From Spirochaetia bacterium (GTDB lineage: Bacteria > Spirochaetota > Spirochaetia > SZUA-6 > Bin103), in contig OZ241863.1 of NCBI GenBank assembly GCA_965203055.1, positions 3,168,001 to 3,232,000 of the forward strand: a stretch of 64,000 bases of DNA. The letters run 5' to 3'. The translations under genes and the position numbers were made by a program. Position 1 is the first letter of the stretch. Each line of letters begins with the position of its first letter. This document shows, piece after piece, positions 497 through 63,337 of this stretch. A model generated the notes under the pieces. The model saw only the letters and a program-made list of their open reading frames with translations, ran no database searches and was not told the origin of the DNA.

Positions 497-498
497 CC

Positions 499-777: not shown

Positions 778-908
778 CCGTACCTCCTCCAGGCTGTTCA
801 TCGCCGGCAGCTCCTCACCGGCCGGCTTGACCTGCTCCATCGAACTCGTCAGCCAGTCGACGTTCTCCGGCCCCGGCGGGCAGTATGGCATTATGTTGGT
901 GCTGACGC

Positions 909-6874: not shown

Positions 6875-6970
6875 CCCGGCCTCGCGCCGGCTCCACACGA
6901 AGCGCCACCGCCGCCGCCAAGTGCCGTACTGGCCAGACGCCCCCACGCCGCGGTATGATCGCGCAGCATC

Positions 6971-8490: not shown

Positions 8491-8578
8491 TTCACTCGGC
8501 AGATTGACCGGTTTACGAACGAACCCAAGATGGTAAAATGCGTTTTCAGAAGACCGAGAAATGCTTCGGAGGTCCTCG

Positions 8579-9748: not shown

Positions 9749-9749
9749 A

Positions 9750-9884
9750 GTGGACATCCTCGCCAACGATCTGTCGATTCACGGACAGCTCCACGACATA
9801 CGGTCATTTCGACGATGCTTCGGCGCCGGTTGCTCGCGGGCGGGCGGTGAGCGACAGCCAGCGACAGGCGGCAGGGCGGATTGA
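9750..9884 (+). pseudogene. Probable truncated 5' remnant of the gene normally following the DUF3696 ATPase
   Basis: GTG lies 1 nt after the ATPase stop and reads MDILANDLSIHGQLHDIRSFR, then degenerates into GC-rich low-complexity sequence (44 aa). Confidence 0.4.
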
Positions 9885-9919
9885 CGGCGCGGCGCCTGAG
9901 CCGGTAGGGTGGGCGCGGC

Positions 9920-11670: not shown

Positions 11671-11677
11671 GGCCGCG

Positions 11678-26989: not shown

Positions 26990-27935
<946 letters not shown>

Positions 27936-28110
27936 GCCGTACCCGTGCTGCGGTGACCCAAGCGCCGTTACGGAGCGGGTACGATTTGGTAACCCGAGTC
28001 AACGAGCCATTGCAAGCGCCGCAGGCGCCCGCGGCCGGCGGCGTTCGGGGGCGCCGCGGCCGGCCGGTTGCCGCGCCCTGCGGAGTAAGGTAATCTTCGC
28101 CATTCCCGTT

Positions 28111-29718
28111 ATGCCTGTGCCATCCAAGACCAAGACCGGAACCAGCGCCCGCGCGGCCAAGTCGACCGCAACCAGGCGCGCCCGCAGCGCAGTGCCGCCG
28201 GGCACGCTCGCCGAGCTGCGCGCCGCCGGCTACCCGGCGGCGCGCACGGTCAAGGACGAGATGCGCGACAACCTGGAGCGCATGCTGCGCGCCGGCGCCG
28301 ACACCGCGGAGCTGTTCCCCGGCATCCTCGGTTACGAGAAGACCGTGCTGCCGGGTCTGGTGAACGCCGTCCTGTCGCGCCACGACTTCATCCTCCTGGG
28401 CCTGCGCGGCCAAGCCAAGACGCGCATCCTGCGCAGTCTGGTGCGGTTCCTCGATGAACGCATCCCCGCCATCGACGGGACCGACCTCAACGAGAACCCG
28501 TTCGCTCCAATCACCGCGCAGGGGCGCCGCCTGCTGGCCAAGCACGGCGCCGCCACCCCGATCCGCTGGATCGAGCGCGGCGAGCGCTACCAGGAAAAGC
28601 TCGCCACCCCGGACGTGACCATCGCCGACCTGATCGGCGACGTCGACCCGATCAAGGCCGCCACCCAGCGGCTCTCCTACGCCGACCAGGGGGTGATCCA
28701 CTACGGCATCGTGCCGCGCACCAACCGCGGCATCTTCGCCATCAACGAGCTCCCCGACCTGCCGCCGCGCATCCAGGTGGGCCTGCTCAACATCCTGGAG
28801 GAGAAGGATTTTCAGATCCGCGGCTTTCCCCTGCGCATCCCGCTGGACATCTGCATGGTGTTCTCCGCCAACCCCGAGGACTACACCAACCGCGGCAATA
28901 TCATCTCGCCGCTCAAGGACCGCATCGACTCGCAGATCATCACCCACTACCCGCAGGACCTGGAGCATGCCCTGGCGATTACCCGCCAGGAGGCATGGAC
29001 CGCGCGCGGCGGCGCCGCTTGCGTGGAGGTGCCGGATTACTATCGCGAGTTGATCGAGGACGTGGCGTTCGAAGCGCGCGCGAGCGAATTCGTGGATCAG
29101 AAGTCGGGCGTGTCGGCGCGCATGACCATCGCCCTGCTGGAGAACGTCATCTCCAACGTGGAGCGGCGCTGCTTTCGCCACGGCGACCGGTTGGCCTATC
29201 CGCGGCTGTCGGATCTGCACCAGGCGCTGCCGGCCATCACCGGCAAGCTGGAGCTGGTGTACGAAGGCGAGCAGGAGGGACCGGCGCTGGTGGCGCGCAA
29301 GATCATCGGTCAGGCGGTGCGGCGCACCTTTCGCCGCTACTTTCCCAAACCTGACGTCAAGGTGCGGGACGGCAAGGAAGGCAGGGAAGGCAAGGAGAGT
29401 AAGGAAGCGGCCGACGCTTCCTCACCCTACGACCCCATAGTCTCCTGGTTCTCGCACGGCCACACGGTGGAGACGGCGGACGATCTGCCCTACGCGGAGT
29501 ACCGGGGGCGTTTCGAGCAGGTGAGCGGGTTGCGCGAGCTGGCTACCGCCGGCCTGAAGATCGCGGCAGAGGAGGAGGAGGGCCTGGGGATGGAGTTGGT
29601 GCTCGAAGGGCTGCACCAGCACTCGATGCTCTCCAAGCGCGATCTCGACAGCGCCAGCTCCTACCGCGACATGCTCAAGGCGATGTTCGATCAGATGGGC
29701 GACGACGAACGCGACTGA
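28111..29718 (+). CDS. AAA+ ATPase (magnesium-chelatase/MoxR-related, vWA-associated)
   Basis: GLRGQAKT, EKLATPD, AINELPDL, ANPEDYTNRG. Confidence 0.85.
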   Translation: MPVPSKTKTGTSARAAKSTATRRARSAVPPGTLAELRAAGYPAARTVKDEMRDNLERMLRAGADTAELFPGILGYEKTVLPGLVNAVLSRHDFILLGLRGQAKTRILRSLVRFLDERIPAIDGTDLNENPFAPITAQGRRLLAKHGAATPIRWIERGERYQEKLATPDVTIADLIGDVDPIKAATQRLSYADQGVIHYGIVPRTNRGIFAINELPDLPPRIQVGLLNILEEKDFQIRGFPLRIPLDICMVFSANPEDYTNRGNIISPLKDRIDSQIITHYPQDLEHALAITRQEAWTARGGAACVEVPDYYRELIEDVAFEARASEFVDQKSGVSARMTIALLENVISNVERRCFRHGDRLAYPRLSDLHQALPAITGKLELVYEGEQEGPALVARKIIGQAVRRTFRRYFPKPDVKVRDGKEGREGKESKEAADASSPYDPIVSWFSHGHTVETADDLPYAEYRGRFEQVSGLRELATAGLKIAAEEEEGLGMELVLEGLHQHSMLSKRDLDSASSYRDMLKAMFDQMGDDERD

Positions 29719-29748
29719 CGACCGGCGGTGCGCGCAGGAGGGTAGAAC

Positions 29749-30837
29749 GTGAATTTCCAGTATCTGAAGTGGGACGAGTCGTTGGCCGCCGCCCTCCAGA
29801 ACTTCACCAACCTGATGAACCTGTTCAACTTCCTGCTGCTGCAGGCCAGCGGCGACGTGGACCGGGTGCTGGAATGGATGAGGTACCTGCAGCGGCGCGG
29901 CTTCATCGACGAGCGGTTCGATCTGGAGGAGTTCCGCGAGCAGTTGGAGCATCAGGCGATCATTCAGCGTGAGGGCGAAGGCCATTCGCTCACCGTGCGC
30001 GGCGAGCAGCAGATCCGCAAGGAATCGCTCAAGCTGATCTTCAACAACCTCAAGCGCGGCGGCTTCGGCCAGCATCGCACGCCGCATACCGGCGACGGCG
30101 GCGAGCGCCTGCCGGAGACGCGCCCCTATCGGTTCGGCGACCCGATCACCCAGATCGACGCCTTCGCTACCGTCAACAACGCGGTGAAGCGGAGCGGAGT
30201 GGACGACATCATGCTCGGCGAGCAGGACTTCGAGGTGTTCGAGACCGAGCACACCTCCTCCTGCGCCACGGTGCTGCTGATCGACCTCAGCCACAGCATG
30301 ATCCTGTACGGCGAAGATCGCATCACGCCCGCCAAGCAGGTGGCGCTGGCGCTGTATGAATTGATCACCACTCAATTCCCGAAGGACAGCCTGCACGTCG
30401 CCTACTTCGGCGACGACGCGCGCATGATCGAGGTGCGCGACATTCCCTACCTCAAGGTGGGTCCGTTCCATACCAACACCAAGGCGGGGCTGCAGCTCGC
30501 GCAGAACGTGCTGCGCAACCAGAAGCATCCCAACAAGCAGGTGTTCATGATCACCGACGGCAAGCCTTCGGCCATCTTCGAGAACGGCCGCCTCTACAAG
30601 AACTCGTTCGGGTTGGATCCCAAGATCGTCAATCAGACGCTGGAGGAGGCCGCCGCCTGCAAGCGCCAGGGCATCGTGATCACCACCTTCATGGTCACCG
30701 AGGATCCCTACCTGGTGAAATTCGTCGAGGAGCTGTCGCGCATCAACAGCGGCCGCGCCTACTACTCCTCCCTCGACAACCTGGGCAACTACATCTTCGC
30801 CGATTACGCCAGGAACCGCCGCCGCAACGTCCGCTGA
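29749..30837 (+). CDS. vWA domain protein, partner of upstream AAA+ ATPase
   Basis: MIDAS motif DLSHSM, TNT and ITDGKP. Confidence 0.85.
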   Translation: MNFQYLKWDESLAAALQNFTNLMNLFNFLLLQASGDVDRVLEWMRYLQRRGFIDERFDLEEFREQLEHQAIIQREGEGHSLTVRGEQQIRKESLKLIFNNLKRGGFGQHRTPHTGDGGERLPETRPYRFGDPITQIDAFATVNNAVKRSGVDDIMLGEQDFEVFETEHTSSCATVLLIDLSHSMILYGEDRITPAKQVALALYELITTQFPKDSLHVAYFGDDARMIEVRDIPYLKVGPFHTNTKAGLQLAQNVLRNQKHPNKQVFMITDGKPSAIFENGRLYKNSFGLDPKIVNQTLEEAAACKRQGIVITTFMVTEDPYLVKFVEELSRINSGRAYYSSLDNLGNYIFADYARNRRRNVR

Positions 30838-30864
30838 CCCGCCGAGTGGTACGAAGGCGTTAGC

Positions 30865-32256
30865 GTGCCGCGCAGCGATCTTCCGTTCGGAAGCGAGTTC
30901 TCTCCTAAGCAAATCACCCTGCCGGTGTTACTGGAACTGGCCCATTCTCATGGGTCTGACTGGAAGGCATTCGAGATCGCGGTCTGCAATCGGTACTTTG
31001 CCGGCCACGACACTTCCCCATATAATCAGCGCAAGCTGGCCAACAATACCAAGCTCTCCATGCGCGCCTATGGCATCATCGGCGCACGGGACGCCACGCT
31101 CACGCCGGTCGGCGAGAGACTGTACGGTTTCCGCACCGACGAACTCGCCCTCCACGAAGAATTCACACGGCACATTCTGAAGAACTGTCACGGTATGAAC
31201 TTCGTGCAGTGCGTCCGGGACATGCAGGCCGCCGGCGAGCGGATCGACCTCACCAGGTTGCGCCGCTGGCTGCAAGAGCGCGGCATCGTCGTTCCTCGCG
31301 GCGGCAAGCACATGAGCACATTGCGCCTGTGGCTCGAACGGGGCGGCATCTTCGTATCCGGTTATCGCGTGGATGAGGGGCGCCTGTCCGAGATCCTGGG
31401 TATCGGGGTAGAGGAGTACGAAGCACTCGCCGGCTTTTCACGGGAGCAACGTGGTTACTTGAAGGCGTTGGCGAACCTCGGCGGCGGTGGTCCGTATGCC
31501 TCGAACGAAATCGAGAAGCTCGCGACTGCCACCTACGGGGTAGCCTTCAACGAGAAGAACCTGCCGAAACAGGTGCTCTACGGGTTGCGGGATGCGGGGT
31601 ACATTCGTCTTGAGCGCGGGACCAAGGCGCCGGGAAGAGGCGCAAAGCCGTTTCTGGTCACCGCCACCAGCAAGCTGACTGCGGAGCTCGTTACCCCGCT
31701 GATCGAGCAGTTGGAGCGGCAGACGCTTCCTGATCTGCGGCCGTTGCTCCGCAAGCCGCTCAGTGAGCTCCGCCGGGAGCTCAAGTCGCGGGACCGGCAT
31801 ATCCGCGGTCTGGCGCTGGAGGCCCTGGCGGTGTGGCTGATGCGCCTGATCGATCTGACCTACGTCGCTACGCGCCTGCGCGGGAGCGTCACCGGCGGGG
31901 CTGAAGTCGATCTGATCTTCGAGAGTGCCCGGCTGGTATTCTCCCGGTGGCAGATCCAATGCAAGAATACCGCCGGCGTCGCGCTTGACGACGTGGCCAA
32001 GGAAGTGGGTCTCAGTCATCTCCTCAAGAGTAACGTGATCGTCATGGTTTCGACCGGAGAGATTGGCAATGAGGCGCGGCGGTACGGCAACAAGATCATG
32101 ACCGAATCCAACCTTTGTATCGCAATGGTGGACGGAGCCGACCTCGATCTCATCGAGGCGCGGCCGGCGGCGATCGTCGATGTACTGTCGCGTGAGGCTC
32201 GTCATGCCATGGACCTCAAGAAACTCGACCAAGGAGCCGACCATGGCGCAACGTGA
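30865..32256 (+). CDS. Restriction endonuclease with C-terminal Mrr-like PD-(D/E)XK domain
   Basis: GLALE...AEVDL...WQIQCKN. Overlaps the downstream methyltransferase start. Confidence 0.8.
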   Translation: MPRSDLPFGSEFSPKQITLPVLLELAHSHGSDWKAFEIAVCNRYFAGHDTSPYNQRKLANNTKLSMRAYGIIGARDATLTPVGERLYGFRTDELALHEEFTRHILKNCHGMNFVQCVRDMQAAGERIDLTRLRRWLQERGIVVPRGGKHMSTLRLWLERGGIFVSGYRVDEGRLSEILGIGVEEYEALAGFSREQRGYLKALANLGGGGPYASNEIEKLATATYGVAFNEKNLPKQVLYGLRDAGYIRLERGTKAPGRGAKPFLVTATSKLTAELVTPLIEQLERQTLPDLRPLLRKPLSELRRELKSRDRHIRGLALEALAVWLMRLIDLTYVATRLRGSVTGGAEVDLIFESARLVFSRWQIQCKNTAGVALDDVAKEVGLSHLLKSNVIVMVSTGEIGNEARRYGNKIMTESNLCIAMVDGADLDLIEARPAAIVDVLSREARHAMDLKKLDQGADHGAT

Positions 32257-33655
32257 GCTGCTGGAAGCTGAGACGATACGGCAGACCGGCATGGGAGAGA
32301 TCGTTCATGGCGACAGTGTCAACGTACTTGCTGCCTACTCGGATGACTCGGTCGACTTGATCATGACCAGCCCGCCGTTCGGGCTGGTGCGTAAGAAGGA
32401 CTATGGCAACGTCGATGCGGACGAATACGTGGACTGGTTCAAGCCGTTCGCCAAGGCGTTCCATCGAGTTCTGAAGAACAGCGGCAGCCTGGTAATCGAC
32501 ATCGGCGGAGCCTGGAACAAGGGCTACCCCACTCGCAGCCTCTATCACTTCAAGCTCCTCATCATGTTGTGCGAGGAGTTCGGGTTTCACTTGGCACAGG
32601 AGTTCTATTGGTGGAACCCATCCCGGCTGCCGACCCCCGCGGAGTGGGTAACCGTGCGCCGGGTGCGCGTGAAGGATGCCGTCAATACCGTGTGGTGGCT
32701 GTCGAAGACGCCGTGGCCGAAAGCCGGCAACCGGCGTGTGCTGCAACCATACAGCGCCAGTATGCAGGAGCTGTTGGCCAAGGGCTATCGCGCCAAGAGG
32801 CGGCCTTCGGGGCACGAAATAAGCGCAAAATTCAACGTGAACAACGGCGCGGCTATTCCACCCAACCTCATCGCGATACCCAACACCGAGAGTAACAGCT
32901 TCTATCTGCGCTACTGTGAGGAGAACGGCTTCAAGCCGCATCCGGCGCGGTACCCGGCCGAGCTGCCGGAGTATTTCATCCGCATGCTGACCGAGCCCGG
33001 CGACTTGGTGGTGGATCCGTTCGCCGGGAGTTGCGTCACGGGAGAGGTCTGCGAACGTACCGAGCGGCGCTGGGTCTGCATCGAGCTGGTGCGGGACTAC
33101 TGCGAGGCGGCGCTTGGCCGTTTCGTCCGCGATCCGCGCGCGTCCGCCAAGGCAGTCGCGGATCCCGACAATCCGTCCAACTACTACCGGCTCGCGCGTC
33201 CGGGTATCTTGTGGCAGGCGCGTGACGGCGCGCCGCTCGCGGCGGACGGCGGCCGGAAGCGCGACCCTGCGCCGCAGAACGCGCCGCCGTCAGTGCCTCC
33301 TGCGAGCGAACGCCAACTCATGCTCCGCGCCGAATCGGGTGAGATGCTGGAACGGGGCCCGGCGCTGGTCCCCGGCTGGTTGGTGGGTCGTTGGCGCAGC
33401 GAGGATGGCCCTAGCTTGTGTGCTGAACAACACCGTATCACGATGCATGCCGCCGAGCCGGTGGCAAGTCAGGCCATCTTCGACTGCCGCCTGGATTATC
33501 GGTCGCCAAGCGTACGTGAGCAGCGCTGGGATTCCAGTTACCGCATCGACAACGGTCGATCCTTGCATGCGACGGTGCTGTCATCAGACCGTATCAGAGT
33601 GATTCTTGACGACCACGAATGGGAGTTGACCCGCCAGCTCTCATTGCCAATGTAG
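32243..33655 (+). CDS. Beta-class N4-cytosine (N6/N4) DNA methyltransferase with C-terminal extension
   Basis: Motif IV TSPPF precedes HPARYP and motif I DPFAGS; SD AAGGAG. Confidence 0.9.
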   Translation: MAQRELLEAETIRQTGMGEIVHGDSVNVLAAYSDDSVDLIMTSPPFGLVRKKDYGNVDADEYVDWFKPFAKAFHRVLKNSGSLVIDIGGAWNKGYPTRSLYHFKLLIMLCEEFGFHLAQEFYWWNPSRLPTPAEWVTVRRVRVKDAVNTVWWLSKTPWPKAGNRRVLQPYSASMQELLAKGYRAKRRPSGHEISAKFNVNNGAAIPPNLIAIPNTESNSFYLRYCEENGFKPHPARYPAELPEYFIRMLTEPGDLVVDPFAGSCVTGEVCERTERRWVCIELVRDYCEAALGRFVRDPRASAKAVADPDNPSNYYRLARPGILWQARDGAPLAADGGRKRDPAPQNAPPSVPPASERQLMLRAESGEMLERGPALVPGWLVGRWRSEDGPSLCAEQHRITMHAAEPVASQAIFDCRLDYRSPSVREQRWDSSYRIDNGRSLHATVLSSDRIRVILDDHEWELTRQLSLPM

Positions 33656-50205: not shown

Positions 50206-50760
50206 ATGGGGTAACTCGGAAATTATACTGGACCGCGCTCCAGGTATCGCCCGCGCGTATCGCGGCTCTGGACCCGACCGACTTGAACAAGTTGATGAGC
50301 CGGTTGTTGCGCGCGCAAGCCTATCGTTGTGGTTCTCCAGCGTTCTGGTCAACACGGAGACCAGTGCGCTGGACGAAGGTTGCGACGGATGGTCCGATCG
50401 GCCGGCAACGCCAGATCCGTGGCTCGGCTCCACTGATACGGGCTGGCAGTTCAAAGCATAGGGTGTCGAGCAGCCGCACCGGTTGAGTGCCGAGGTCGAA
50501 AAGCCGCTTCCCCTGAAACCCCTGCGCGACGGGGTCGGTCCGTGGTGGTCGCCAGTGGTTCGACGAATGGGCAGGCGGGCACCGACCGCCGGCGGGAGCG
50601 ACTGACTACCGTCGCCAGACAGGTTGGACTATCCGCGAAAGTTGAAGAGAGAATAAGAGGTCTATGACAGCGAAGAATATCGCCAAGTGGTGGCAATCAG
50701 CATCCCGTCGTTGCAGACCATTGGCCCGGTCATATGCATTGGCCCGGGTGAAGAAATCTG
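50206..50760 (+). pseudogene. Decayed gene with N-terminal PD-(D/E)XK (Mrr-like) nuclease domain; 3' limit uncertain (may extend to ~51120)
   Basis: Fragments across frames read LDPTDLNKLMSRLLRAQA / VLVNTE..ALDEGCDG..WQFKA* / VVVASGS / EVYDSE..W.NQHP, with several frameshifts and stops. Confidence 0.55.
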
Positions 50761-51179
50761 CACGGTTAGGAGAGTCTATGAGATTCGTAAAGGTTACCCC
50801 AGAGAGCATAGAGACGCTTGATCTAAGGGTCAATTTTCAGAAGGGTTCGGACAAGGAAGCCAAGAAGTATAGAGCAGGCAGTCAAGAATGACAGTGGTAC
50901 TATCAATCCCTGCTGAACCTTGAACAGCTTGAGCAGGAGTATACAGATCACTCTAAAGTGGTTCATACTCTCTTGCGGTGGATGGGCTGAAAGATGGAGA
51001 GAGAACCTCAATGTATCAGACATTATGAATGTGCTGATGCTCCGATCGGAAGCGTGCCAGAAAATCGGAGGGGATATACTATTCTCAACAGGTTAGGGTC
51101 AGGCGTAATTGAATCGTGACCCGGATGCAGGGAATTGGAATCAATAGCGGTCCAAAGGGTACTGGAAGGAGAGTAAGAG

Positions 51180-51512
51180 GTGAAGAAGATCATTGTGGGA
51201 GCCGCGCTGTTGATGGTTGCGGCGTTCGTTGCGTGGGCGCAGGTGTCGGGAGCACTGGCACAACTGAGCGGAGAGTATAGCTCTGGTAGCGGTACAGGGG
51301 TTGAGGCACATGAGAGTAATATCGTGGTCAACATCTATACTGACCGTTACTACTTCAAGCGGGACGGGATCGAGGTCGTCGATGGTTTGTTCTTGATCCC
51401 GGAGTTGAACGACAACGGAAAGCAATTCTTGGTTCTCAGAGTCCTCGATGATGGGGAAATAGAGTATGGTTTTACCAAGATGTTTCCCGCAACGAAGGTT
51501 TCCGATGAGTGA
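51180..51512 (+). CDS. Small secreted hypothetical protein
   Basis: Signal peptide MKKIIVGAALLMVAAFVAWA; purine-rich SD; low GC. Confidence 0.6.
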   Translation: MKKIIVGAALLMVAAFVAWAQVSGALAQLSGEYSSGSGTGVEAHESNIVVNIYTDRYYFKRDGIEVVDGLFLIPELNDNGKQFLVLRVLDDGEIEYGFTKMFPATKVSDE

Positions 51513-51756
51513 CCAGACCGACCCCAAGCCGAGGGCGGACGTTGAAGATCGAAGAAGGATCAGGGACGCAGCAAGAAAGGGAGATCGTCTGGACGCTGGT
51601 ACGTATCGCTTGGCGATCATTGGATTCCATGACGCGGTTTTACGCTTGCGCTGCTGGCCGATGCCGAGAACGAGCCCTGGGGAAATAGTATTCGTCGATG
51701 ATACGCGCCGCAAGAGCATCATCCGTCAACCTACTCATGCTGGTCAGATGCGCTAG
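51505..51756 (+). CDS. Hypothetical protein (83 aa)
   Basis: The ATG overlaps the end of the upstream ORF; no recognisable motif. Confidence 0.3.
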   Translation: MSDQTDPKPRADVEDRRRIRDAARKGDRLDAGTYRLAIIGFHDAVLRLRCWPMPRTSPGEIVFVDDTRRKSIIRQPTHAGQMR

Positions 51757-51949
51757 ACGTTGAAGGACTTGGCAGTCGTACCGAAGCTGTCAGGGCTGTG
51801 TGTCTGGGCTTCAGCCGCGGCGCGTACTGTGAGCAGGATGGCAGAACAAGAACAACAACGAGAGGAGGAGCGAGAGCTTCTGATGCGTTGAGCCGTCGGA
51901 GGCGAACCGGGCGGGCTCGGCGGTCCGTCGTTTCGTGGCATAATGGGCT

Positions 51950-53113
51950 ATGGTGTCATCTGTTGGACCTTCCGCCCCGGCGCCGCCGGCGCCCGGTGGG
52001 GGACCTGACCCGGCTGCCCGGTTGGCGGCCGTGCGCGCGTGGCTGGATGCGCAAGACGAGGTGGACGGTCTGCTGCTGGTGCGCCAGGAGTCGCTGGAAG
52101 ACTACGACCTGCGCTACCTGACCGGGTTCGCCGGGACCTCCGCCTTTGCCATCGTGACCGCGCGGCAGGCGCTGCTGCTGACCGACGTGCGCTACCTGGA
52201 GCGGGCGGCGCAGGAGTGCCGCGGCTGGCGCATCCGGCGTCATGGCCGGCCCGCCGCCCCGGCGCTGGCGAAGGCGCTGCGGAGCGCGGGGGTGCGGCGG
52301 CTGGGGTTCGAGCCGGCGGGGCTCAGCGTCGCGCTGTGGAACGAGTTGCGTGGCGGGCTGCCGGACACCGCCCTGGAGCCGGCCGCCGGCGCGGTTACGG
52401 GGCTGCGGGCGCGCAAGGAGGCGGCCGAGGTGGCCGCCATCGCCCGCGCCTGCGCCATCAGCGACGCCGCCTTCGCGCAACTGCTGCCGGGGCTGCGCCC
52501 CGGCGTCAGCGAGCGCGACGTGGTGCGGCAGTTGGAGGAGCTGCTGTACCGCAACGGAGCCGATGCCGTCGCCTTCGAGACGATCGTCGCCTCCGGCCCC
52601 AACTCGGCGCTGCCGCACGCGCTGCCCGGGTTGCGCGCCGTCGCCGAGGGTGACCTGATCGTCTTCGATCTCGGCGCCCGAGTGGACGGCTACTGCGCGG
52701 ACCTTACCCGCACCGTGGTAATGGGGCCGGCGTCGGCCGCGCAGCGGCGCCTGTACGGCGCGGTGCGCGAAGTACAGGCCGCGGCGGTGGCCGGGGTGCG
52801 GGCGGGGGCAAGCTGCGCGGAACTGGATGCCGCGGCCAAGCAGGCCATGAAGGCCGCGGGCTACGGAAAGTATCCTACCCATAGTCTCGGCCACGGCCTC
52901 GGCTTGGCGATCCACGAGGGGCCGTTCCTGCGCCCGCGCAACGAGGAGGTGCTCATCGCCGGCCACGTGGTGACGGTGGAGCCGGGCATCTACGTGCCCG
53001 GCTTTGGCGGGGTACGGATCGAGGATACCGTGGTGGTCGAGGAGCAAGGCTGCCGGGTGCTGACTTCCAGCCCCAGAGAACTGATCGAGCTGGACGCCGC
53101 GGAGGGCGCATGA
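51950..53113 (+). CDS. Xaa-Pro aminopeptidase (M24 family)
   Basis: [39 protein letters not shown]. Confidence 0.93.
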
Positions 53114-54887: not shown

Positions 54888-56390
54888 TCAGTTCCCGTCA
54901 AACATATCGTCATCCAGTTCAGGATTCGCCCAGAAGGGGGCGTAACTGCGGTTTCGCGTCCCTACGGCGGGGTCTGCGATCACGATGAGGCCCGCCGTGA
55001 CCGCCTCATTGAGGAACCGTGACGCCATGGACGCATTGTTCCCGGAAATCCCGAATCGTTCGCGTAGCGAGGCGTTGGTCATACGCTGGCGATTCACGTA
55101 TTGCAGGCAGGCGTGCAGATAGCAGGCCCGCACCCGCTCGGCTCTATCCACGTCGGCCATCGGCTTGCGGGCGAAGAGCACGACGCGGGTAAAGTTCGGC
55201 GGCGACTCGAAGAGCGGAGCCGGCAGTTGGTGACGCTCGATCTCGGCCACGACCTTGTCGATTCCGCTGCCCCGTTCCTCGCAGATCCGAAAGCGGCGCA
55301 TAAGCGAAGCGAGCGCTTCGTTGCGGGAATCGGGCGGACTGTCCAGGAAGCGCTGCGTTTCTACCAGCGGCTCGCCGGGATTCGTGATCTCGATGCGCCC
55401 GTCGAAGATTTCGACCATCGGCCCGGCCCCGGCCACGGAGAAGTCCTGATGGATGAGGGCGTTTCCGACCAACTCGCGCACCGCCGGTGCCGGGAACTCC
55501 GGCACCGCCGCGCGCAACGCCTGGCCCAGTTCCTCTTTCGCCGGCAGTCTGGCGTCAATGTAGTCTACCAGCTCCTCGAAACCGGATGCATAGCCCTTGG
55601 TTCCTTCGTGTTCCTTCAACGTCTCGGTGCGGCCTGCGCCGCGGTATTCGATCACACGCAGGCTCTTACGTTTCAATCGGGAGAAGTCGCCGAGATTCCT
55701 GGCGAGCAGGATGGCGCCCAAATTGGTAATGTCGAAGCCGCCTGCCTTACCAGGCGCGATTATCCGGTCCCTCCGCAGCGCGTCGAGGATGGCGGTACGG
55801 CCATCCGGCAGCGGCGCGGCAAGGAGGTCGAAATAGGCCGGATAGTCGAGCCTGAGCAGAACGTCTTCACCACTTACCCGTTCCGCGGCAACGCCGTCCT
55901 CGAAGGGCACACGGTCGAACATTCGCCAGAGTTCCCGTTCTTTCTCGGGAAATTCCTTGAGCTTTCTGGTGGTACCGCCAACTCGAATGAACTCCACGCC
56001 GCTGAACGCGACCGGTTGCCGAGATGCACGGTCGATCTCCAGGAGCACGACGCGTCCTCCATCATCCACGACTTCGTGAAAGCGGAAGTCGATGCGAGGA
56101 CTCAGGAGCCGCAGCAACCACGTCTCCAGCGGCTCGTTGCCCTTCTTCGCAGTGCCCGGCGAGAAGCCCGTACCCGTGACCGTATGCGTATGGTTCTGGA
56201 TCCCCCAGAGCACGTACGCGTTCACCTTGCCGTGGAGCGCCGCCCCGTTGGCCAGCGCGGAGATGTATCGACCGATACGATCCGGCTGGTCCTGATCGAC
56301 CTTGAACTCGACCCATTCGGTCTCGTGCGGCAGCTTGCACAGCTCACGAACGAGACCGAGAAGGTAGCTATTGTCGCGGCTGGTGATCAT
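54888..56390 (-). CDS. Schlafen/AlbA_2 + HATPase_c_4 + winged-helix protein
   Basis: ETEWVEFK..YISALANG; RELVGNALIHQDF, ITNPG, CEERGSGIDK; MTNASLRERFG...YAPFWA. Confidence 0.88.
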   Translation of the reverse strand: MITSRDNSYLLGLVRELCKLPHETEWVEFKVDQDQPDRIGRYISALANGAALHGKVNAYVLWGIQNHTHTVTGTGFSPGTAKKGNEPLETWLLRLLSPRIDFRFHEVVDDGGRVVLLEIDRASRQPVAFSGVEFIRVGGTTRKLKEFPEKERELWRMFDRVPFEDGVAAERVSGEDVLLRLDYPAYFDLLAAPLPDGRTAILDALRRDRIIAPGKAGGFDITNLGAILLARNLGDFSRLKRKSLRVIEYRGAGRTETLKEHEGTKGYASGFEELVDYIDARLPAKEELGQALRAAVPEFPAPAVRELVGNALIHQDFSVAGAGPMVEIFDGRIEITNPGEPLVETQRFLDSPPDSRNEALASLMRRFRICEERGSGIDKVVAEIERHQLPAPLFESPPNFTRVVLFARKPMADVDRAERVRACYLHACLQYVNRQRMTNASLRERFGISGNNASMASRFLNEAVTAGLIVIADPAVGTRNRSYAPFWANPELDDDMFDGN

Positions 56391-56393
56391 GGC

Positions 56394-56771
56394 TCAGCGT
56401 GGGGGCTGGTGGGCGCCGGCGTCGGTGACGTCGCGTATCCAAGCCAGGGCGGCCATTGCCGCCGACCAGCCGATTGAGGAGATGGCGAGCAACGGCACCT
56501 GCAGCAGCTCCTCTGCCGGGATGCCCTCGCGCAATCCGCGGCGGGCGTGGGAGTGCACCGCGCCCTGGGAGCGGGCGCCGACGGCCAGCGCCAGCTTCAC
56601 CAGGCGCTGAGCGCGCTCGTCCAGCGGCCCGGCTGCCGCGGCCGCCGCCCCGAGCTCCTGGTAGGCGCGCCACACCTCGGGATACTCGGCGATGACGCCG
56701 TCCAGGAATCCCGGCAGCCGCTCCCGGCGCTCCTCTTCGCTGCCGGCCGATTCTGACTTGTCCTGCTTCAC
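56394..56771 (-). CDS. Carboxymuconolactone decarboxylase (CMD/AhpD-like) protein
   Basis: YPEVW.AY, GPLDER..RLVKLALA, GAVHSHARR. Confidence 0.85.
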   Translation of the reverse strand: MKQDKSESAGSEEERRERLPGFLDGVIAEYPEVWRAYQELGAAAAAAGPLDERAQRLVKLALAVGARSQGAVHSHARRGLREGIPAEELLQVPLLAISSIGWSAAMAALAWIRDVTDAGAHQPPR

Positions 56772-56960
56772 CAAGGTCCTGCGACTATGCGGGCGGGCCG
56801 GTCCCCGGTCAAGCAGCGCCGGCGGCGGGCAAGCGGCCCCGGACCACCGTCGGCGCGCGTAACCGCAGCCGCCGGGAGCGGCAGGTGCGGCGAGCCTGCC
56901 CGGCCCGGTCAGCGCCGGCGCGGAGGGTACTCGCCCATGGGTGCGCGCGGCCGGCCGGTC

Positions 56961-56989
56961 TTGACATCCCAATGGCGGCGCTCTAGCTT
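56961..56989 (+). promoter_or_regulatory. Sigma70-type promoter of the ku operon
   Basis: TTGACA-17 nt-TAGCTT upstream of ku. Confidence 0.6.
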
Positions 56990-57025
56990 TGTCAGTGCAG
57001 CGCCGCCGGGGCGCGAGGGGGAGTG

Positions 57026-57907
57026 ATGCCGCTACGTACAAGCTGGAAGGGATTCGTCAAGCTCAGTCTGGTTTCGGTCCCGGTAAAGGCCTACACGGCC
57101 AATGACCCCAGCTCCCAGATTCGCCTCAACCAACTCCACTGCGACTGCAACACGCGCATCGCCTACAAGAAGGTGTGTCCGGTGCACGGCGAGGTGGGCA
57201 GCGATCAGATCACCCGCGGCTACGAGCATGCCAAGGGCCAGTACGTGGTGATCGAAGATGAGGAGCTGGAAAAGCTGCGCACCAAGACCGATCACTCCGT
57301 CAACATCGAAGGATTCGTAGCCCCGGACGATCTGGACCCGGTGTACCACGCCGGCCGTACCTATTACCTGTTGCCCGACGGTCCGGTGGGTCAGAAGCCC
57401 TACCGCCTGCTGTTGCGCGGCATGCAGGAGAACCAGGTGCATGCCCTGGCGCAGGTAGTGATCTCGCAGCGCGAGCAGCTCGTGCTGCTGCGTCCGGTGG
57501 ACGGCATCCTGGCCATGTCCGTACTCAGTCACAAGGCAAAGGTGAAGTCGATCGATCTGTTCCGGGACGAGATCGAGGAGGCGGAGTGCAGCCCCGAGGA
57601 GCTGCAGCTCGCCAGCATGCTGATCGACGCCTCGCGGCTGCAGGACTTCGACTTTGGCAGCTATACCGACCGCTACGTCGAGAAGCTTACCGAGCTGATC
57701 CAACTCAAGGTGCAGGGACAGGACGTGGTGCAGGCGGAGGATGTCGAGGAACCCAAGATCATCAACCTCATGGAGGCGTTGAAGCAGAGCGTTGCCGAGG
57801 CGCAGGGCGCCGCCGAGGCGGCGGGCAAGAAGCAGGCGCCGAGCGCCAAGAGCAAGCGCAGCACTGCGCCGCGCGGCAGCCGGGCGCGCAAGCGGCAGGC
57901 CGGCTAG
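57026..57907 (+). CDS. ku: NHEJ DNA end-binding protein Ku
   Basis: SWKGFVKLSLVSVPVK, RGYE..KGQYVVI, YYLLP, IINLMEALKQS; basic C-terminal tail. Confidence 0.95.
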   Translation: MPLRTSWKGFVKLSLVSVPVKAYTANDPSSQIRLNQLHCDCNTRIAYKKVCPVHGEVGSDQITRGYEHAKGQYVVIEDEELEKLRTKTDHSVNIEGFVAPDDLDPVYHAGRTYYLLPDGPVGQKPYRLLLRGMQENQVHALAQVVISQREQLVLLRPVDGILAMSVLSHKAKVKSIDLFRDEIEEAECSPEELQLASMLIDASRLQDFDFGSYTDRYVEKLTELIQLKVQGQDVVQAEDVEEPKIINLMEALKQSVAEAQGAAEAAGKKQAPSAKSKRSTAPRGSRARKRQAG

Positions 57908-57980: not shown

Positions 57981-58985
57981 ATGCGGACCGTTCCCCTGCC
58001 GGGGCGCGCCGCTGACGCGGCGCAGGGCGAAGTCGTGGCCGTTGCCGGCGCCCGCCTGCCGCGCAGGTTCGCGCCCATGCTCGCCAAGCCGGGTGAGCCG
58101 TTCGACTCCGAGCGCCACCTGTACGAGGTGAAGTGGGACGGCATTCGCGCGGTGACCCTGGTGGAGGGCGGCGGCTACCGCCTGCTGAGCCGGCGCGGCA
58201 CCGACCTTACCGGCAACTACCCGGAGCTGGCTGTCCTGGCGCGGCTGCCCGCCGGCACGGTGGTGGACGGCGAGATCGTGGCGCTCAACGAGGGCCGCCC
58301 CGACTTCGAGTACATCCTGCGCCGCGACCGGCGCGGCCCCCGCGCCCCGGAGACCGGCAGGATGCCGGCGATCTACCTGGTATTCGACCTGATGTACCGT
58401 GACTTCACCTCGGTCATGGAGCTGCCGTTGCTGGACCGGCGGCGCCCGCTGGCCGACCTGGTAAGCGGCTGCGGATCGCCGCACGTCGCCCTCTCCGACG
58501 GCGTGGTCGGCGCCGGCGTGCAGTTCTATCGCGAGGTCTGCCGGCGCGACCTGGAAGGGGTGGTCGCCAAGCGGGTGGACAGCCGCTACCTGGCGGGGCG
58601 GCGCTCGGACGCGTGGCTCAAGATCAAGCGCCGCAGCCGCTACCACTGCGTCGTGCTGGGCTTTCTCGACAAGGAAGGTTCCGACTTTCAGAGTCTGCTG
58701 GTGGCCACCGAGCGGGAGGCGGGGGCGGGGCTGCGCTACGCCGGCCGGGTCGGCACCGGCTTCGACGAGGAGCAGCGGCGGGAGATCAACGCGTTGTTGC
58801 GCCGCCATCCCCGGGCGGCGCCGCTGCTGCCGCGCCCGGCCGAGCTGTCGGCGCGCCATCAGTGGGATCAGGTGCGCTGGGTCGAGCCGGTCCTGTTCTG
58901 CGTCGTCTCCTGTCTGGAGCTGACCAGCGCCGGGATCATGCGGGCGCCGGTGTTCGAGGGGCTGATCGAGGAGTCCGCGCCGTGA
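57981..58985 (+). CDS. ATP-dependent DNA ligase (LigD/LigC-type adenylation + OB domains)
   Basis: PMLA, YEVKWDG, DGEIV, FDLM, EGVVAKR, WLKIK, GRVGTGF, RAPVF. Confidence 0.92.
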   Translation: MRTVPLPGRAADAAQGEVVAVAGARLPRRFAPMLAKPGEPFDSERHLYEVKWDGIRAVTLVEGGGYRLLSRRGTDLTGNYPELAVLARLPAGTVVDGEIVALNEGRPDFEYILRRDRRGPRAPETGRMPAIYLVFDLMYRDFTSVMELPLLDRRRPLADLVSGCGSPHVALSDGVVGAGVQFYREVCRRDLEGVVAKRVDSRYLAGRRSDAWLKIKRRSRYHCVVLGFLDKEGSDFQSLLVATEREAGAGLRYAGRVGTGFDEEQRREINALLRRHPRAAPLLPRPAELSARHQWDQVRWVEPVLFCVVSCLELTSAGIMRAPVFEGLIEESAP

Positions 58986-60376
58986 CCGCGGCGTCCGCCG
59001 GCGGGGACCGGCTGCGCGACCGGGAGGTGGCGTTCGCCGGCCGGCTGGCGTCCATGACCCGGCGCGAGGCCGGCGCGCGGGTAGCCGCGGCCGGAGGCCG
59101 GGTGGTGCGCGAACCAAGCGCCGACACCGCCTACCTGGTGGTAGGGCAGGGCGGCTGGCCGTTGGGCGCGGATGGCCGGCCGGGCAGCGGCATGGCGCGG
59201 GCGCGCCGGCTCAAGGAGCAGCGCGCGCCGTTGAGCATCGTTTCCGAGACTACCTTCCTGCAGATTCTCGGGCTCACGGAGAAGGTGGAAGATCTGCAGC
59301 GCCTGTTTACCACGGCGCAGCTCAGCCGCATCCTCGAGGTGCCGGCGCGGGAGCTGCGCGCCTGGATGCGGCGCAAGCTGATCCGTCCGGTAAAGGTGGC
59401 GCGGCGCCTGGCCTGGTTCGACTTCCGCGAGGTGGCGATGGCGCGGGCGCTGCACGGCCTGATCAGCGCCGGGGTCAGCCCGGCGCGCATCGGGCGCAGC
59501 ATCCGCGAGCTGGCGCAGTGGCTGCCGGAGACCCAGGGCGTCGACACCCAGGCCATGCTCACCCAATTGGAGACTTCCGCCCACGGCCCGGCGCTGAGCA
59601 TCCGGTTGCAGGATGGACGCCTGGCCGACCCGGGCGGCCAGTTGCTGCTCGACTTCCACCGCGGCGCGGCGCCCGGATCGCACCGTGCCGCGATCCGCGC
59701 CTTCACTCCGCCGCACGCGGCGGACCCGCAGCCGGCGCCCGGCGGCCGCCGGCCCGCGGCGCCGGAACTGGTGCGCGACCTGGCCGCGGTGCTGGGCATG
59801 GCGCCTGACGGTATGCCCGCCTCGGAGGAGCCGCCGGGCGTCGCCGAACCGGACACGCCCGGCGGGGTACTCGACTTCGGGACCGCGGCCGGGGCGTGGC
59901 CCGGCGCCGGCCCCGACCAATTGTTCCGGCACGGCGTGCTGGCCGAGGACGCCGGCCAGTGGCACCTCGCCCGCCACCTCTACGAGCGCGCCCTGGCCGC
60001 CGGCGGCGTCGATCCGGAGACCTGCTTCAACCTCGGCAACGTGCTGTACGAGTTGGATCGCAAGCATGCCGCGGCGCGCCGTTACCTGCAGGCGGTGGCG
60101 CTGGACGCCGAGTACGTGGAGTCGCTCAACAACCTGGGCAACGCCCTGGCCGAGAGCGGCTGGCTGAACGAAGCGGTGCGCGCCTACCGCCGCGCGCTAC
60201 TCCTGGAGCCCGCCTACGCCGATGCCCACAGCAACCTGGCGGAGGCCCTGGTGTACCTCGGCCGCTATGGGGAGGCGCGCTTCCACTGGACCGCCTATCT
60301 CGCCATCGACCCGCGCAGTTCCTGGGCCAACGCCATCCGCGAATTGCTGCGCAATCTCCCCGCCGACCGTAACTGA
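58982..60376 (+). CDS. BRCT + MerR-type HTH + TPR protein
   Basis: BRCT: VAFAGRLASMTR.EA...GG...T.YLVVG...IVSETTFL. HTH: FTTAQLSRILEV..LRAW.RRKLIRP. TPRs: FNLGNVL, NNLGNAL, SNLAEAL. Confidence 0.85.
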   Translation: MTAASAGGDRLRDREVAFAGRLASMTRREAGARVAAAGGRVVREPSADTAYLVVGQGGWPLGADGRPGSGMARARRLKEQRAPLSIVSETTFLQILGLTEKVEDLQRLFTTAQLSRILEVPARELRAWMRRKLIRPVKVARRLAWFDFREVAMARALHGLISAGVSPARIGRSIRELAQWLPETQGVDTQAMLTQLETSAHGPALSIRLQDGRLADPGGQLLLDFHRGAAPGSHRAAIRAFTPPHAADPQPAPGGRRPAAPELVRDLAAVLGMAPDGMPASEEPPGVAEPDTPGGVLDFGTAAGAWPGAGPDQLFRHGVLAEDAGQWHLARHLYERALAAGGVDPETCFNLGNVLYELDRKHAAARRYLQAVALDAEYVESLNNLGNALAESGWLNEAVRAYRRALLLEPAYADAHSNLAEALVYLGRYGEARFHWTAYLAIDPRSSWANAIRELLRNLPADRN

Positions 60377-60390
60377 AGGCGCGCGGCGGT

Positions 60391-61167
60391 TCACACCCGC
60401 ATCCGCAGCAGCGGGCGCGCGAACGAGATTGGCAGGCAGCCGTCGCCGACGCGGGACCTGGTGCCGGGAGTCATGAAGTGAATGGCGAAGGCGCGCCGCT
60501 CATGCGCGGTCTGGTTGGGGCCGGTGTAGTGGAAGGTCTGGCAATGGTGCAGCATGGCGCCGCCCGCCGGCAGTTCGATTGCCACCGCCTGCGCGCTGTC
60601 CACGCGCCCGGCGTTGTCGAGCAGCGCGTCGGTAGAGGCCGCGCGGTCATGTTCCAGCGCCCGCAGGTGGGAGCCGGGAAGCACCTGCATCGCCCCGTTG
60701 GCAACGGTGACGGCGTCCAGCGTCAGCCAGCAGCTCACCAGGTTGGCCGGCACGCATTGCCAGTAGGCGTTGTCCTGATGCCAGAACACCGGGCCGCCGT
60801 GGTGCGCCGGCTTGTACAGCGCCTGATCGTGGAACAACTGGATGTTGGGACCGATCAGATCCTCGATGCAGTCCAGGATCGGCTCGTGGTACAGCAACCG
60901 GCGGAAGCGCAGGTTGCGCTCGCACATCTGCATGATCTGCAGCATCTGCTCGCCGGCCTCGTTCTTGGCCGCCAGGTCGTCGGTGTCGTCGATGGCGAGG
61001 TTGCGGAATGAGCTGCCACCGGCGCGGGCGCGCGCGAACTCGCGGTCGTACTCGCGGCGCAACTGCTCGACCTCGGCGCCGTCGAGCAGCGCGCCCAACT
61101 TCAGGTAGCCGTGGGTGTGGAATGCGTCCACCTGCGCGGCGGTGAGTCTGCGGTAGCCGTCGGTCAT
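60391..61167 (-). CDS. Phytanoyl-CoA dioxygenase family (Fe/2OG) protein
   Basis: WHQDNAYW, NGAMQVLPGSH, TFHYTGPN. Confidence 0.9.
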   Translation of the reverse strand: MTDGYRRLTAAQVDAFHTHGYLKLGALLDGAEVEQLRREYDREFARARAGGSSFRNLAIDDTDDLAAKNEAGEQMLQIMQMCERNLRFRRLLYHEPILDCIEDLIGPNIQLFHDQALYKPAHHGGPVFWHQDNAYWQCVPANLVSCWLTLDAVTVANGAMQVLPGSHLRALEHDRAASTDALLDNAGRVDSAQAVAIELPAGGAMLHHCQTFHYTGPNQTAHERRAFAIHFMTPGTRSRVGDGCLPISFARPLLRMRV

Positions 61168-61240: not shown

Positions 61241-63337
61241 TCAGGAGGCTGCAAGATACTCCTGCAGGCGCTCGATTGCGGGGGCGAAGTCCTGGGGATC
61301 GGTCAGCGTGGAGCGAAACCGATCGCCGCGCCGCGCCAGGAGCGCCGGGGTGTTCGCAATGGTGAACATGCCGGGGTGCAGGTCGCCGTCCAGCTCGTCC
61401 CACTCCAGCGGCATCGACACGCGCGCGCCCGGGACCGGGCGCGCCACGTAGGGTGGCACCATGGTGGCGCTCTTGCGATTTTGCAGGAAGTCCACGTACA
61501 CCTTGCCGCCGCGCCCGCGCGGGTGCCGTTCCACGCTGGCGATGTCGGGATGCTCGCGCGCCACCATGCGCCCGACCGCCTCCATGAACAGGCGTACCTG
61601 GTGGTAGCCGTAACCGGGCACCAGCGGCAGATAGACGTGCAGCCCGGAGGCGCCGGAGGTCTTGACGGAGGGGTGCAGGCCGATGCCGCGCAACACCTTG
61701 CCGGCGGTGCGCGCCACCCGCTTGGCGTTGGCGAAGGAAGATTCCTTGGCGTCCAGGTCCAGTACCGCGAAGTCGGGGTGCTCCAGGCTGGCGCGGCGCG
61801 ACAGCCAGGGGTGCAGCTCGATGCTGCCCAGATTGATCAGGTAGAGCAGGGTCCGCACGTCGTTGCAGACGAGTTGGCGGTCGTGCCGCGCGTCGACCTC
61901 CACCAGTTCCACCCAGTCCGGCACCCCGGCCGGAGCCTGGCGCTGGAAGAACGACTTGCCCTCGATGCCGTTGGGGTAGCGGTGCAGGTGCACCGGCCGT
62001 TCGCGCAGGTAGGGGAGGAGAAACTCGGCCACCTGCTCGTAGAACTGCAGCAGGTCGCCCTTGGTGTAACCCTCGCGCGGCCAGAACACCTTGTCCAGGT
62101 TGCTGAACGCGACCGCGGCGTCGCGCGGCCGGCGCTGCCGGGCCTGCGCCAGGGCGGTGCTGACGTCGACCCGGCGCGCCGCCGCGGCCGCCTGCAGCGC
62201 CACCCTGCGCCACGCCGGCCGGGCGCCCGACCGATAGCGGCTGTCGGCCCGCTTGGCGACCAGCGCGTGGAAGCCGGCGGCCTCGGCGACCGCGGCCAGA
62301 CGCTCGCCGCTCGCCGCGACGTGATCGGCGTACAGCAGGCCGGGCGACGGCGGCAGCAGCGAGCGCAGCAGGTGCTTGCGTTCCAGCAGCGGCAGGCCGC
62401 GCAGGTCCCATTCATCGTAGTGCAGCAGGTCGAATGCGTAGTAGACGACGGCTCCCTGGGTCTCCCCGCTGCCGGCCCAGGCGTCGATGGCGCCCCGCGC
62501 AGGGCGGCCGCTCCGGTCCAGCGCCACCCACACCCCGTCCAGCAGCGCCTGTTCGGCGCGGACGCCGGCGAAGCGCGCCTGCGCCGCCGCCGCGGCGCGC
62601 GGATGCAGGGGCAGCCGCCCCCCGCCCGGCGCCGCGAACGCCGCCGCGCCGCCGTTGATCATGGCCAGGGCGCGGAGCCCCTCGAACTCCAGCTCGAAGA
62701 TCCAGTCGGCGCCGGAGAACTGCTCATGGTCGGCGCCCGCGGCCATGGCTCGCGGGCGCTTGGGAAGGGGCGCCGTGCGTACCCGCGCCGGGTCCACCGC
62801 CGGTACCGGGTCGCCGGCGCCGCGGGCGTAGCGGTCGCGCGCCTTGAACAGCAGCCAATCATCCTTGTCGGGGTTGGTCCGCACCAGGTGCCACTCGCCG
62901 CGCAGCCGGCGGCCGCGCAGCATCACCTTCACTTCGCCGGCGGCGAGCGCCTCCGCCAGGCCGGCGGCCTTCACGATCTCGTAGGAACCGGAGTCCCAGA
63001 TCAGCATGGTGCCGGCGCCGTATTCACCCTTCGGAATCACGCCTTCGAAGGTGCGGTAGCGCAGCGGATGATCCTCGGTGCGCACCGCCAGATGCTTCTC
63101 CGCCGGGTCATAGGAGAAACCGCGCGGGACGGCCCAGGATACCAGTACCCCGCCGGCCGCGAGGCGCAGATCGTAGTGCACGCGGCGCGCCTCGTGGCGA
63201 TGGATCACGAAGCTGCCCTCAGCGGCCGGCGGAGCTTCCCCGGATGCCCCCGCCGGGTCGTCGAACGCGGGTTCCGGAGTGCGGTGAAAGTTGCGCTTGG
63301 CCTGATATTCCGCGGCGGACTTCGAGCTGCGCGCCAT
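61241..63337 (-). CDS. ligD: LigD-like protein: phosphoesterase + degenerate ligase domain + primase/polymerase
   Basis: PE: HRHEARRVHYDLRL, EDHP, EYGAG. Ligase-like: FELEFEG, LDG, FDLL, AKR. Pol: DLDA, KTSGASGLHVY, VYVDFLQN. Confidence 0.88.
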   Translation of the reverse strand: MARSSKSAAEYQAKRNFHRTPEPAFDDPAGASGEAPPAAEGSFVIHRHEARRVHYDLRLAAGGVLVSWAVPRGFSYDPAEKHLAVRTEDHPLRYRTFEGVIPKGEYGAGTMLIWDSGSYEIVKAAGLAEALAAGEVKVMLRGRRLRGEWHLVRTNPDKDDWLLFKARDRYARGAGDPVPAVDPARVRTAPLPKRPRAMAAGADHEQFSGADWIFELEFEGLRALAMINGGAAAFAAPGGGRLPLHPRAAAAAQARFAGVRAEQALLDGVWVALDRSGRPARGAIDAWAGSGETQGAVVYYAFDLLHYDEWDLRGLPLLERKHLLRSLLPPSPGLLYADHVAASGERLAAVAEAAGFHALVAKRADSRYRSGARPAWRRVALQAAAAARRVDVSTALAQARQRRPRDAAVAFSNLDKVFWPREGYTKGDLLQFYEQVAEFLLPYLRERPVHLHRYPNGIEGKSFFQRQAPAGVPDWVELVEVDARHDRQLVCNDVRTLLYLINLGSIELHPWLSRRASLEHPDFAVLDLDAKESSFANAKRVARTAGKVLRGIGLHPSVKTSGASGLHVYLPLVPGYGYHQVRLFMEAVGRMVAREHPDIASVERHPRGRGGKVYVDFLQNRKSATMVPPYVARPVPGARVSMPLEWDELDGDLHPGMFTIANTPALLARRGDRFRSTLTDPQDFAPAIERLQEYLAAS

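Follow-up and report, generated by a model that had tools for sequence, protein, structure and literature searches.

Non-homologous end-joining (NHEJ) in bacteria is taught as a two-protein system of Ku and LigD. In the canonical LigD of the Pseudomonas aeruginosa type, 3'-phosphoesterase (PE), ligase (LIG) and primase-polymerase (POL) domains follow one another in one protein; in split sets, such as the archaeal Methanocella-type and the mycobacterial LigC/Prim-PolC, ligation and end processing reside on separate polypeptides. Here we describe psi-LigD, a gene encoded in a 64,000-nucleotide stretch of a Spirochaetia bacterium genome (assembly GCA_965203055.1, contig OZ241863.1, positions 3,168,001 to 3,232,000), hereafter the window. 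Its PE and POL domains are intact, its ligase module is, judged by the residues it has lost, catalytically dead, and an intact stand-alone ligase lies next to Ku in a neighbouring operon. We think it likely that psi-LigD is the end-processing subunit of a split NHEJ system, in which the dead domain serves as a scaffold or docking module and ligation is supplied in trans.

With the canonical enzyme psi-LigD has in common its domain order, PE and POL domains that pass the NCBI models and a Ku gene nearby. What sets it apart is a ligase module with neither nucleophile nor OB domain, from which the metal and phosphate ligands are gone too; the whole protein falls below the cut-offs of the full-length DNA ligase D equivalogs (TIGR02776, 338.4 against 373.2; NF004628, 517 against 895). 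As in the split sets, ligation and end processing would be divided between polypeptides, but here PE and POL remain fused through a dead nucleotidyltransferase (NTase) domain and the presumed trans ligase, unlike that of LigC sets, belongs to the LigD-ligase type (TIGR02779). The closest solved chains to POL and PE include the stand-alone 'NHEJ Polymerase' 5dmu and 5dmp, which we take to represent the archaeal Methanocella-type set. The nearest published analogy is non-canonical prokaryotic PolX, described in passages of PMC9226535 as an NHEJ-associated repair enzyme with one dead and one working domain; its fold and family are unrelated, and the dead part is a polymerase there and a ligase here.

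The reading frame of psi-LigD starts with ATG and runs uninterrupted for 698 residues. Pfam recognises LigD_N at residues 46-153 (138 bits) and LigD_Prim-Pol at 425-673 (272 bits), and the corresponding NCBIfam models both exceed their cut-offs (TIGR02777 for PE, 186.2 against 144; TIGR02778 for POL, 237.1 against 214.7). The PE residues H48, H54, D56, R58, H90 and Y94 correspond to H42, H48, D50, R52, H84 and Y88 of P. aeruginosa, comprising the Mn-binding His-His-Asp set and the Arg, His and Tyr to which passages of NHEJ reviews assign catalytic roles, and all six are invariant in our alignment A2. The three catalytic aspartates of POL (D527, D529, D616) are likewise present and invariant, or nearly so, in A2. 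Residues D162, V194 and R198, at which POL of M. tuberculosis LigD contacts Ku, are unconserved when mapped onto psi-LigD POL. The middle domain belongs to the NTase fold by three sequence comparisons: a marginal match to DNA_ligase_A_M (PF01068; residues 206-376, 29.7 bits against a cut-off of 26.2), an alignment with the ligase domain of Mycobacterium tuberculosis LigD (1vs0; residues 208-375, E 3.5e-11), and an hhalign match to the profile of the stand-alone ligase, which reaches a probability of 99.67 and stops at the NTase. A look-up in the ESM Atlas returned generic ligase clusters only.

What this domain has lost is evident from the 1vs0 alignment. Motif I changes from FEGKWDGYR to FELEFEGLR, which replaces the nucleophile Lys481 and the motif's Asp; motif III changes from LDGE to LDGV (Glu530 to Val269) and motif IV from WEGVIAKR to FHALVAKR (Glu613 to His357); and W376-R-R-V-A stands in place of the W-x-K-x-K of motif V, whose lysines become Arg378 and Ala380. 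The ligase motifs by which a DNA ligase D is recognised (KxDG, the motif III and IV glutamates, the Lys-x-Lys of motif V) are missing. Pfam finds no OB domain (PF04679, with motif VI), and the NHEJ ligase model TIGR02779 scores 89.1 against a cut-off of 227.75, covering profile positions 6-182 of 302 and leaving its OB half unmatched. The gap from the motif V Trp to POL is 25 residues, equal to the median of 63 dead-type proteins and against a median of 143 in 105 intact ones. An earlier, sequence-only reading of this DNA had named these motif remnants (EFEG, LDGVW, FHALVAKR, WRRV), the absence of the OB domain, the intact PE and POL motifs in an unbroken frame, and a complete ligase at 57981, and in all of this it was right.

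These losses characterise a family. Comparing 72 proteins without the motif III Glu with 176 intact ones (each denominator counts the proteins that have a residue in that column), the nucleophile Lys (K481) is kept in 3/69 of the former, the motif III Glu (E530) in 0/72, the motif IV Glu (E613) in 0/69 and the first motif V Lys (K635) in 0/66, where each stands at or near 100% in the intact set. R501 survives in 3 of the 36 pseudo-family proteins aligned there, the conserved Arg before motif V in 8/67 against 151/175 intact proteins, and at the position of K637 lysine is not among the four commonest residues; the canonical invariants Y221, D241, F281, Q285 and R335 are altered as well. A different fate has met the residues that hold the base and sugar. 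In the list of ATP contacts given in part of the review PMC8656161, the adenine and ribose contacts of the M. tuberculosis ligase domain are E479, R486 and K618; their equivalents E215, R222 and K362 are kept in 67/68, 66/69 and 64/69 proteins, as is the motif IIIa Phe in 62/71, and 24 fold or pocket residues are conserved in pseudo and canonical groups alike. By these alignments every catalytic, metal or phosphate ligand is gone from the pseudo-domain and the adenine and ribose contacts are retained. The M. tuberculosis mutants E613A and K637A do not seal nicks, according to the same part of PMC8656161, and on this residue evidence the ligase module of psi-LigD is catalytically dead.

A homologue search with residues 185-400 returned 113 matches, of which 51 are dead-type (about 700 residues, without PF04679 and with the same substitutions) and 62 are canonical LigDs (about 830-900 residues, with all motifs). 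Scanned against genomes taken one per species, a profile (A1) built from 15 pseudo-domains found 583 relatives; in the best 80 of these, 24 loci have the layout of PE, dead NTase and POL and 56 are canonical. The 24 comprise 5 from Spirochaetia, 7 from Acidobacteriota (Marinacidobacterales and relatives), 10 from Planctomycetota and 2 from unclassified metagenome-assembled genomes. In all of them the motif III Glu has become Val, Ile or Cys and the motif IV Glu and motif V lysines are gone, and in 21 the motif I Lys is absent. Against 1.84 billion representative sequences, A1 gave 25,416 matches at E <= 0.001; the best 150 pooled with the earlier homologues make 261 proteins. The Lys and the motif III Glu are both present in 176 of them and both absent from 74; the Glu alone is kept in 8, where the Lys is lost or its position is a gap, and the Lys alone in 3. 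Database entries call members of the family 'non-homologous end-joining DNA ligase' (P0040) or 'bifunctional ... LigD' (P0044, P0048, P0050).

The 25 pseudo-domains make up a single clade (SH-aLRT 99), on a stem of length 0.83, in a tree of 91 NTase domains made after removal of two partial rows; their neighbours there are canonical PE-LIG-POL LigDs from Myxococcota, Acidobacteriota and Gemmatimonadota (support 94). The same clade returns (SH-aLRT 100) in a further tree, for which 30 of the 56 canonical rows were chosen by hand. A broader FastTree of 248 rows, with 13 short rows dropped, gathers 66 of the 72 dead rows in one clade and requires at least six state changes. Six LigD-like proteins (P0147, P0190, P0260, P0244, P0124, P0258), in which catalytic residues, the motif I Lys or others, are missing, fall outside that clade; some of them have no OB domain and yet keep the motif III Glu. 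They may represent independent or intermediate losses of ligase function, for which a FastTree placement is weak evidence.

The pseudo-domain is under purifying selection. By the NG86 method, comparison of psi-LigD with three Spirochaetia relatives gives dN/dS of 0.22, 0.31 and 0.41 for the pseudo-domain, 0.21-0.28 for PE and 0.23-0.28 for POL; the stand-alone ligase (0.36-0.43) and Ku (0.16-0.34) are similar in kind, and the linker at the OB position, measured over residues 377-408 and thus from two residues before its start, is nearly neutral (0.68-0.98). At matched POL identity, the ratio of NTase to POL identity spans 0.78-0.84 among 32 pseudo-type proteins and 0.82-0.92 among 23 canonical ones, all from hand-chosen rows of A2. 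Together these values indicate that the pseudo-domain is only slightly relaxed, unlike the linker adjoining it. The earlier reading had allowed that the substitutions might be strain-specific decay; their spread through 51 of 113 homologues and 24 of 80 loci, in one clade, refutes this.

Upstream of psi-LigD, on the opposite strand, lie Ku and a stand-alone ligase with every motif in place (KWDG, DGE, EGVVAKR, WLKIK), an OB domain (PF04679, 58.7 bits) and a passing TIGR02779 score (233.3 against 227.75); a third gene, X, completes their operon. Of the 24 pseudo loci, 10 (L001-3, L010, L013, L015, L016, L023, L026, L053) have an intact ligase of this type, with NTase and OB domains, within 10 kb of psi-LigD, and eight of these 10 also have Ku, whereas a second ligase-like open reading frame appears in 1 of 56 canonical loci, as a fragment at a contig end (L063); Fisher's test gives p 1e-5, on rows that are related and so not independent. 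The convergent order of the window, in which psi-LigD faces X, the ligase and Ku, recurs at eight loci. The same genes are more widely spaced at L015, and at L023 the ligase lies directly upstream of psi-LigD. Synteny with Ku-ligase-X is found in Spirochaetota, Planctomycetota and one unclassified metagenome-assembled genome. The neighbouring ligases form one clade (support 100) whose Spirochaetia and Planctomycetota groupings mirror those of the pseudo-domains. The unconstrained tree separates the two sets, and an approximately unbiased test did not reject a common clade for them (p 0.327). A PhyH-family dioxygenase gene (60391..61167, minus strand) stands between the operons only in the window, L001 and L002, and is probably not part of the system.

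Gene X, whose GTG start overlaps the stop of the ligase gene (GTGA), encodes BRCT, MerR-type helix-turn-helix (HTH) and tetratricopeptide repeat (TPR) parts, and its family is named only 'tetratricopeptide repeat protein' in the source databases. The BRCT part matches the BRCT-bearing ends of the PRK06195 and LigA models (E 2e-8 to 8e-4); Pfam BRCT is weak in the window copy (0.042) and above cut-off in the homologue at L018. X is present in the window and at 10 of the 24 pseudo loci (L001, L002, L003, L010, L013, L015, L016, L018, L026, L053), with the BRCT part unmatched in L010, L013, L016 and L026. Nor is it confined to dead-type loci: a full-length homologue follows Ku in five canonical-LigD loci of Devosiaceae (L024, L046, L051, L075, L077; hhalign probability 99.96, E 9e-39), and an X-like fragment (L037:6-329) follows Ku in a locus of Myxococcota. 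A PDB search with X gave TPR matches only, and a literature search that did not extend to subscription journals found no paper on a BRCT or TPR partner of bacterial NHEJ. X may serve bacterial NHEJ as a conserved accessory or regulatory factor, and we put it forward as a candidate. Among its homologues, one protein of 620 residues (P0295) joins PF01068 (24-194) to an X-type MerR HTH (426-492); this could be a true fusion of ligase and X or the artefact of a frameshift or of gene calling where the stop and start overlap.

Table 1. Features of the psi-LigD locus, in positions of the window.
Feature	Position	Strand	Basis
psi-LigD gene (PE, dead NTase and POL; 698 residues)	61241..63337	-	Open reading frame list; Pfam and NCBIfam domains
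3'-phosphoesterase (PE), residues 10-168, catalytic residues intact	62834..63310	-	TIGR02777; alignment to 2lj6
Pseudo-nucleotidyltransferase (dead ligase adenylation domain), residues 201-378	62204..62737	-	PF01068; 1vs0 alignment; hhalign
Motif I remnant WIFELEFEGLRA, residues 212-223, Lys to Glu217, Asp to Glu219	62669..62704	-	Alignments
Short linker, residues 379-408, at the canonical place of the OB domain	62114..62203	-	dN/dS; 25-residue gap
Primase-polymerase (POL), residues 409-675, catalytic Asp intact	61313..62113	-	TIGR02778; PDB alignments
Ku	57023..57907	+	TIGR02772 (247.6, cut-off 150); conserved C-terminus in alignment A3
Stand-alone LigD-type ATP-dependent DNA ligase (NTase and OB)	57981..58985	+	Pfam, NCBIfam, motifs
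Gene X (BRCT, MerR-type HTH, TPR)	58982..60376	+	Third gene of the Ku-ligase-X operon

In proposing how such a system might work, we envisage that Ku would bind DNA ends and that psi-LigD, recruited as canonical LigD is, would trim 3' ends and fill gaps through its predicted-active PE and POL domains, after which the LigD-type ligase of the neighbouring Ku-ligase-X operon would seal the break in trans. The dead domain had a single origin, at which it changed fast, and has been under purifying selection ever since; it would be retained as a cis scaffold that keeps PE and POL in a working arrangement, as a surface for a partner, or as both; it probably now holds a non-catalytic job, and binding of an adenine nucleotide would also be possible. 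The best-precedented candidate partner is the C-terminal tail of Ku. According to the part of Sowa 2026 (PMC13717202) that we draw on, the Ku C-terminus of M. tuberculosis contacts the LigD NTase at D522, R567, K579 and L580, and the NTase mutations K579E and L580E slow the polymerase and reduce DNA binding even when Ku is absent. In the 1vs0 alignment these four residues map to A261, W310, H322 and L323 of psi-LigD. Among the few conserved positions specific to the pseudo group, R260 (64/70, where intact proteins mostly have Pro) and an aromatic residue at 310 (70/71) coincide with or adjoin the columns of D522 and R567, an overlap in aligned columns that offers a lead for Ku docking and is not evidence of binding. 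The sequence-only reading had proposed a DNA-binding or docking module. Loss of R501, the R629 region, K635 and K637 of M. tuberculosis (Arg and Lys residues in contact with the ATP phosphates and conserved in active LigD ligase domains), together with loss of the OB domain, speaks against a canonical kind of nick binding and weakens the first half of that proposal; docking or scaffolding is still plausible.

Several observations weigh against this account. Seventeen pseudo loci have 6 kb or more on each side; nine of them have no ligase nearby, and eight of these nine (L004-L008, L011, L017, L022) are also without Ku and X; these eight are all of the long-flank Acidobacteriota loci together with L005 and L022 of Spirochaetia, while the ninth, L014, has Ku only, and the neighbours at L004 are unrelated to repair. 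The expectation that psi-LigD homologues always co-occur with a stand-alone ligase is thus not borne out at the level of the locus, where what stands is a strong association. Three of the 24 loci (L004, L006, L017) retain the motif I Lys, without the Asp and the other catalytic residues. All 24 loci derive from metagenome-assembled genomes, and the dN/dS values are simple NG86 estimates in a high-GC genome. As to Ku, only one of the four contact residues, L580, is matched in psi-LigD, and its column is variable in the family (L 26, A 20, F 13 of 71). Finally, the retained pocket residues could be purely structural.

A more ambitious version of the split system would have the dead NTase exapted as the organising module of a four-protein machine, composed of Ku, the ligase, X and the PE-psiNTase-POL protein, in which it would take up a partner (the Ku tail, X or the ligase), perhaps along with an adenine nucleotide, and by this binding gate POL and PE before sealing in trans. 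We regard this as rather unlikely. Many pseudokinases act as ligand-binding regulators without chemistry, and the pseudo-domain might similarly be a sensor that binds ATP, AMP, ADP or NAD and couples the state of the cell to PE and POL. From its conserved residues the pseudo-domain may indeed still bind an adenine nucleoside or nucleotide, as E215, R222, K362 and the motif IIIa Phe are kept where the phosphate and metal ligands have all been lost; against this, the loss of the phosphate binders R501, K635 and K637 leads one to expect weaker nucleotide affinity, and the residues that are kept are invariant in active ligases too and may serve folding, so that a sensing role seems to us unlikely.

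The eight long-flank loci that lack Ku, ligase and X nearby could instead suggest that psi-LigD alone fills gaps and cleans 3' ends in repair independent of Ku, its proximity to an NHEJ operon being a coincidence of some lineages, and a precedent has been published in the mycobacterial excision-repair complex of LigC and Prim-PolC (PMC5663958). Conservation of the Ku-ligase-X synteny in Spirochaetota, Planctomycetota and the unclassified metagenome-assembled genome, and the agreement in grouping between the single clade of stand-alone ligases and the pseudo-domains, make this improbable. Quite improbable, too, is that the dead domain is a neutral relic, a leftover without a function of its own that has not yet been deleted. 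The OB domain has already gone with the catalytic residues, and the NTase evolves somewhat faster relative to POL than it does in canonical LigD, as a relic should; but a dN/dS of 0.22-0.41 beside 0.68-0.98 in the adjacent linker, a clade extending over three named phyla with the 24 shared fold and pocket residues, and a maintained domain length are not what decay would leave. That the domain ligates or adenylylates by way of another nucleophile is scarcely credible, for all that the motif I Lys persists in 3 of 24 loci and K321 and K362 are conserved, given that the glutamates of motifs III and IV, the lysines of motif V and the OB domain have all been lost and that single substitutions in M. 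tuberculosis, E613A or K637A, suffice to abolish nick sealing (the same part of PMC8656161).

Elsewhere in the window, some 630 bp upstream of Ku and on the far side of a CMD-family gene (56394..57038), lies the gene (54888..56390, minus strand) of a protein with Schlafen AlbA_2 and HATPase_c_4 (RecG C-terminal-like) domains; PADLOC gave no match for the Schlafen-type protein. At one end of the window, 50..12961 is a defence island that holds a C-terminal fragment like GmrSD/HEC-06 at the edge, an NsnB-like AAA ATPase, BrxC/PglY (1473 bits), PglZ (684 bits) and two BrxD-like open reading frames, and looks like a BREX-type system whose BrxD-like genes are perhaps split. In a row at 27934..33652 come an AAA_5 ATPase, a VWA-domain protein, an open reading frame without family match and a type II-like DNA methyltransferase, which may be another defence or modification module. 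A stretch of low GC at about 50450..51950 (0.55-0.58, against about 0.7 elsewhere) contains no long open reading frame, only one of 110 residues (51180..51512, plus strand) with a signal-peptide-like N-terminus, and may be foreign DNA. Scans of the 64 kb for tRNA and Rfam families found nothing.

Among the literature we searched, including parts of PMC8656161, PMC7719229, PMC10140301 and bioRxiv 10.1101/2023.09.30.560322, with subscription journals and supplements outside the scope, no description of a LigD with a dead ligase was found. Genome surveys score NHEJ by domain matches (PMC7719229, in the part concerned, is an example), and with a weak PF01068 match and 'LigD' names, genomes that carry psi-LigD are counted with those that have a conventional ligase, though the domain is predicted to be unable to ligate. 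The psi-LigD family is a natural separation-of-function variant for the roles of the LigD ligase module other than ligation, namely contact with Ku, cross-talk with POL and nucleotide binding. The four-protein machine, if real, would give bacteria a counterpart to the scaffolded NHEJ complex of eukaryotes and would include a first pseudo-ligase with a defined role. Together, psi-LigD and the Ku-linked X suggest that little-studied phyla have end-joining machines of greater complexity, built from several subunits.

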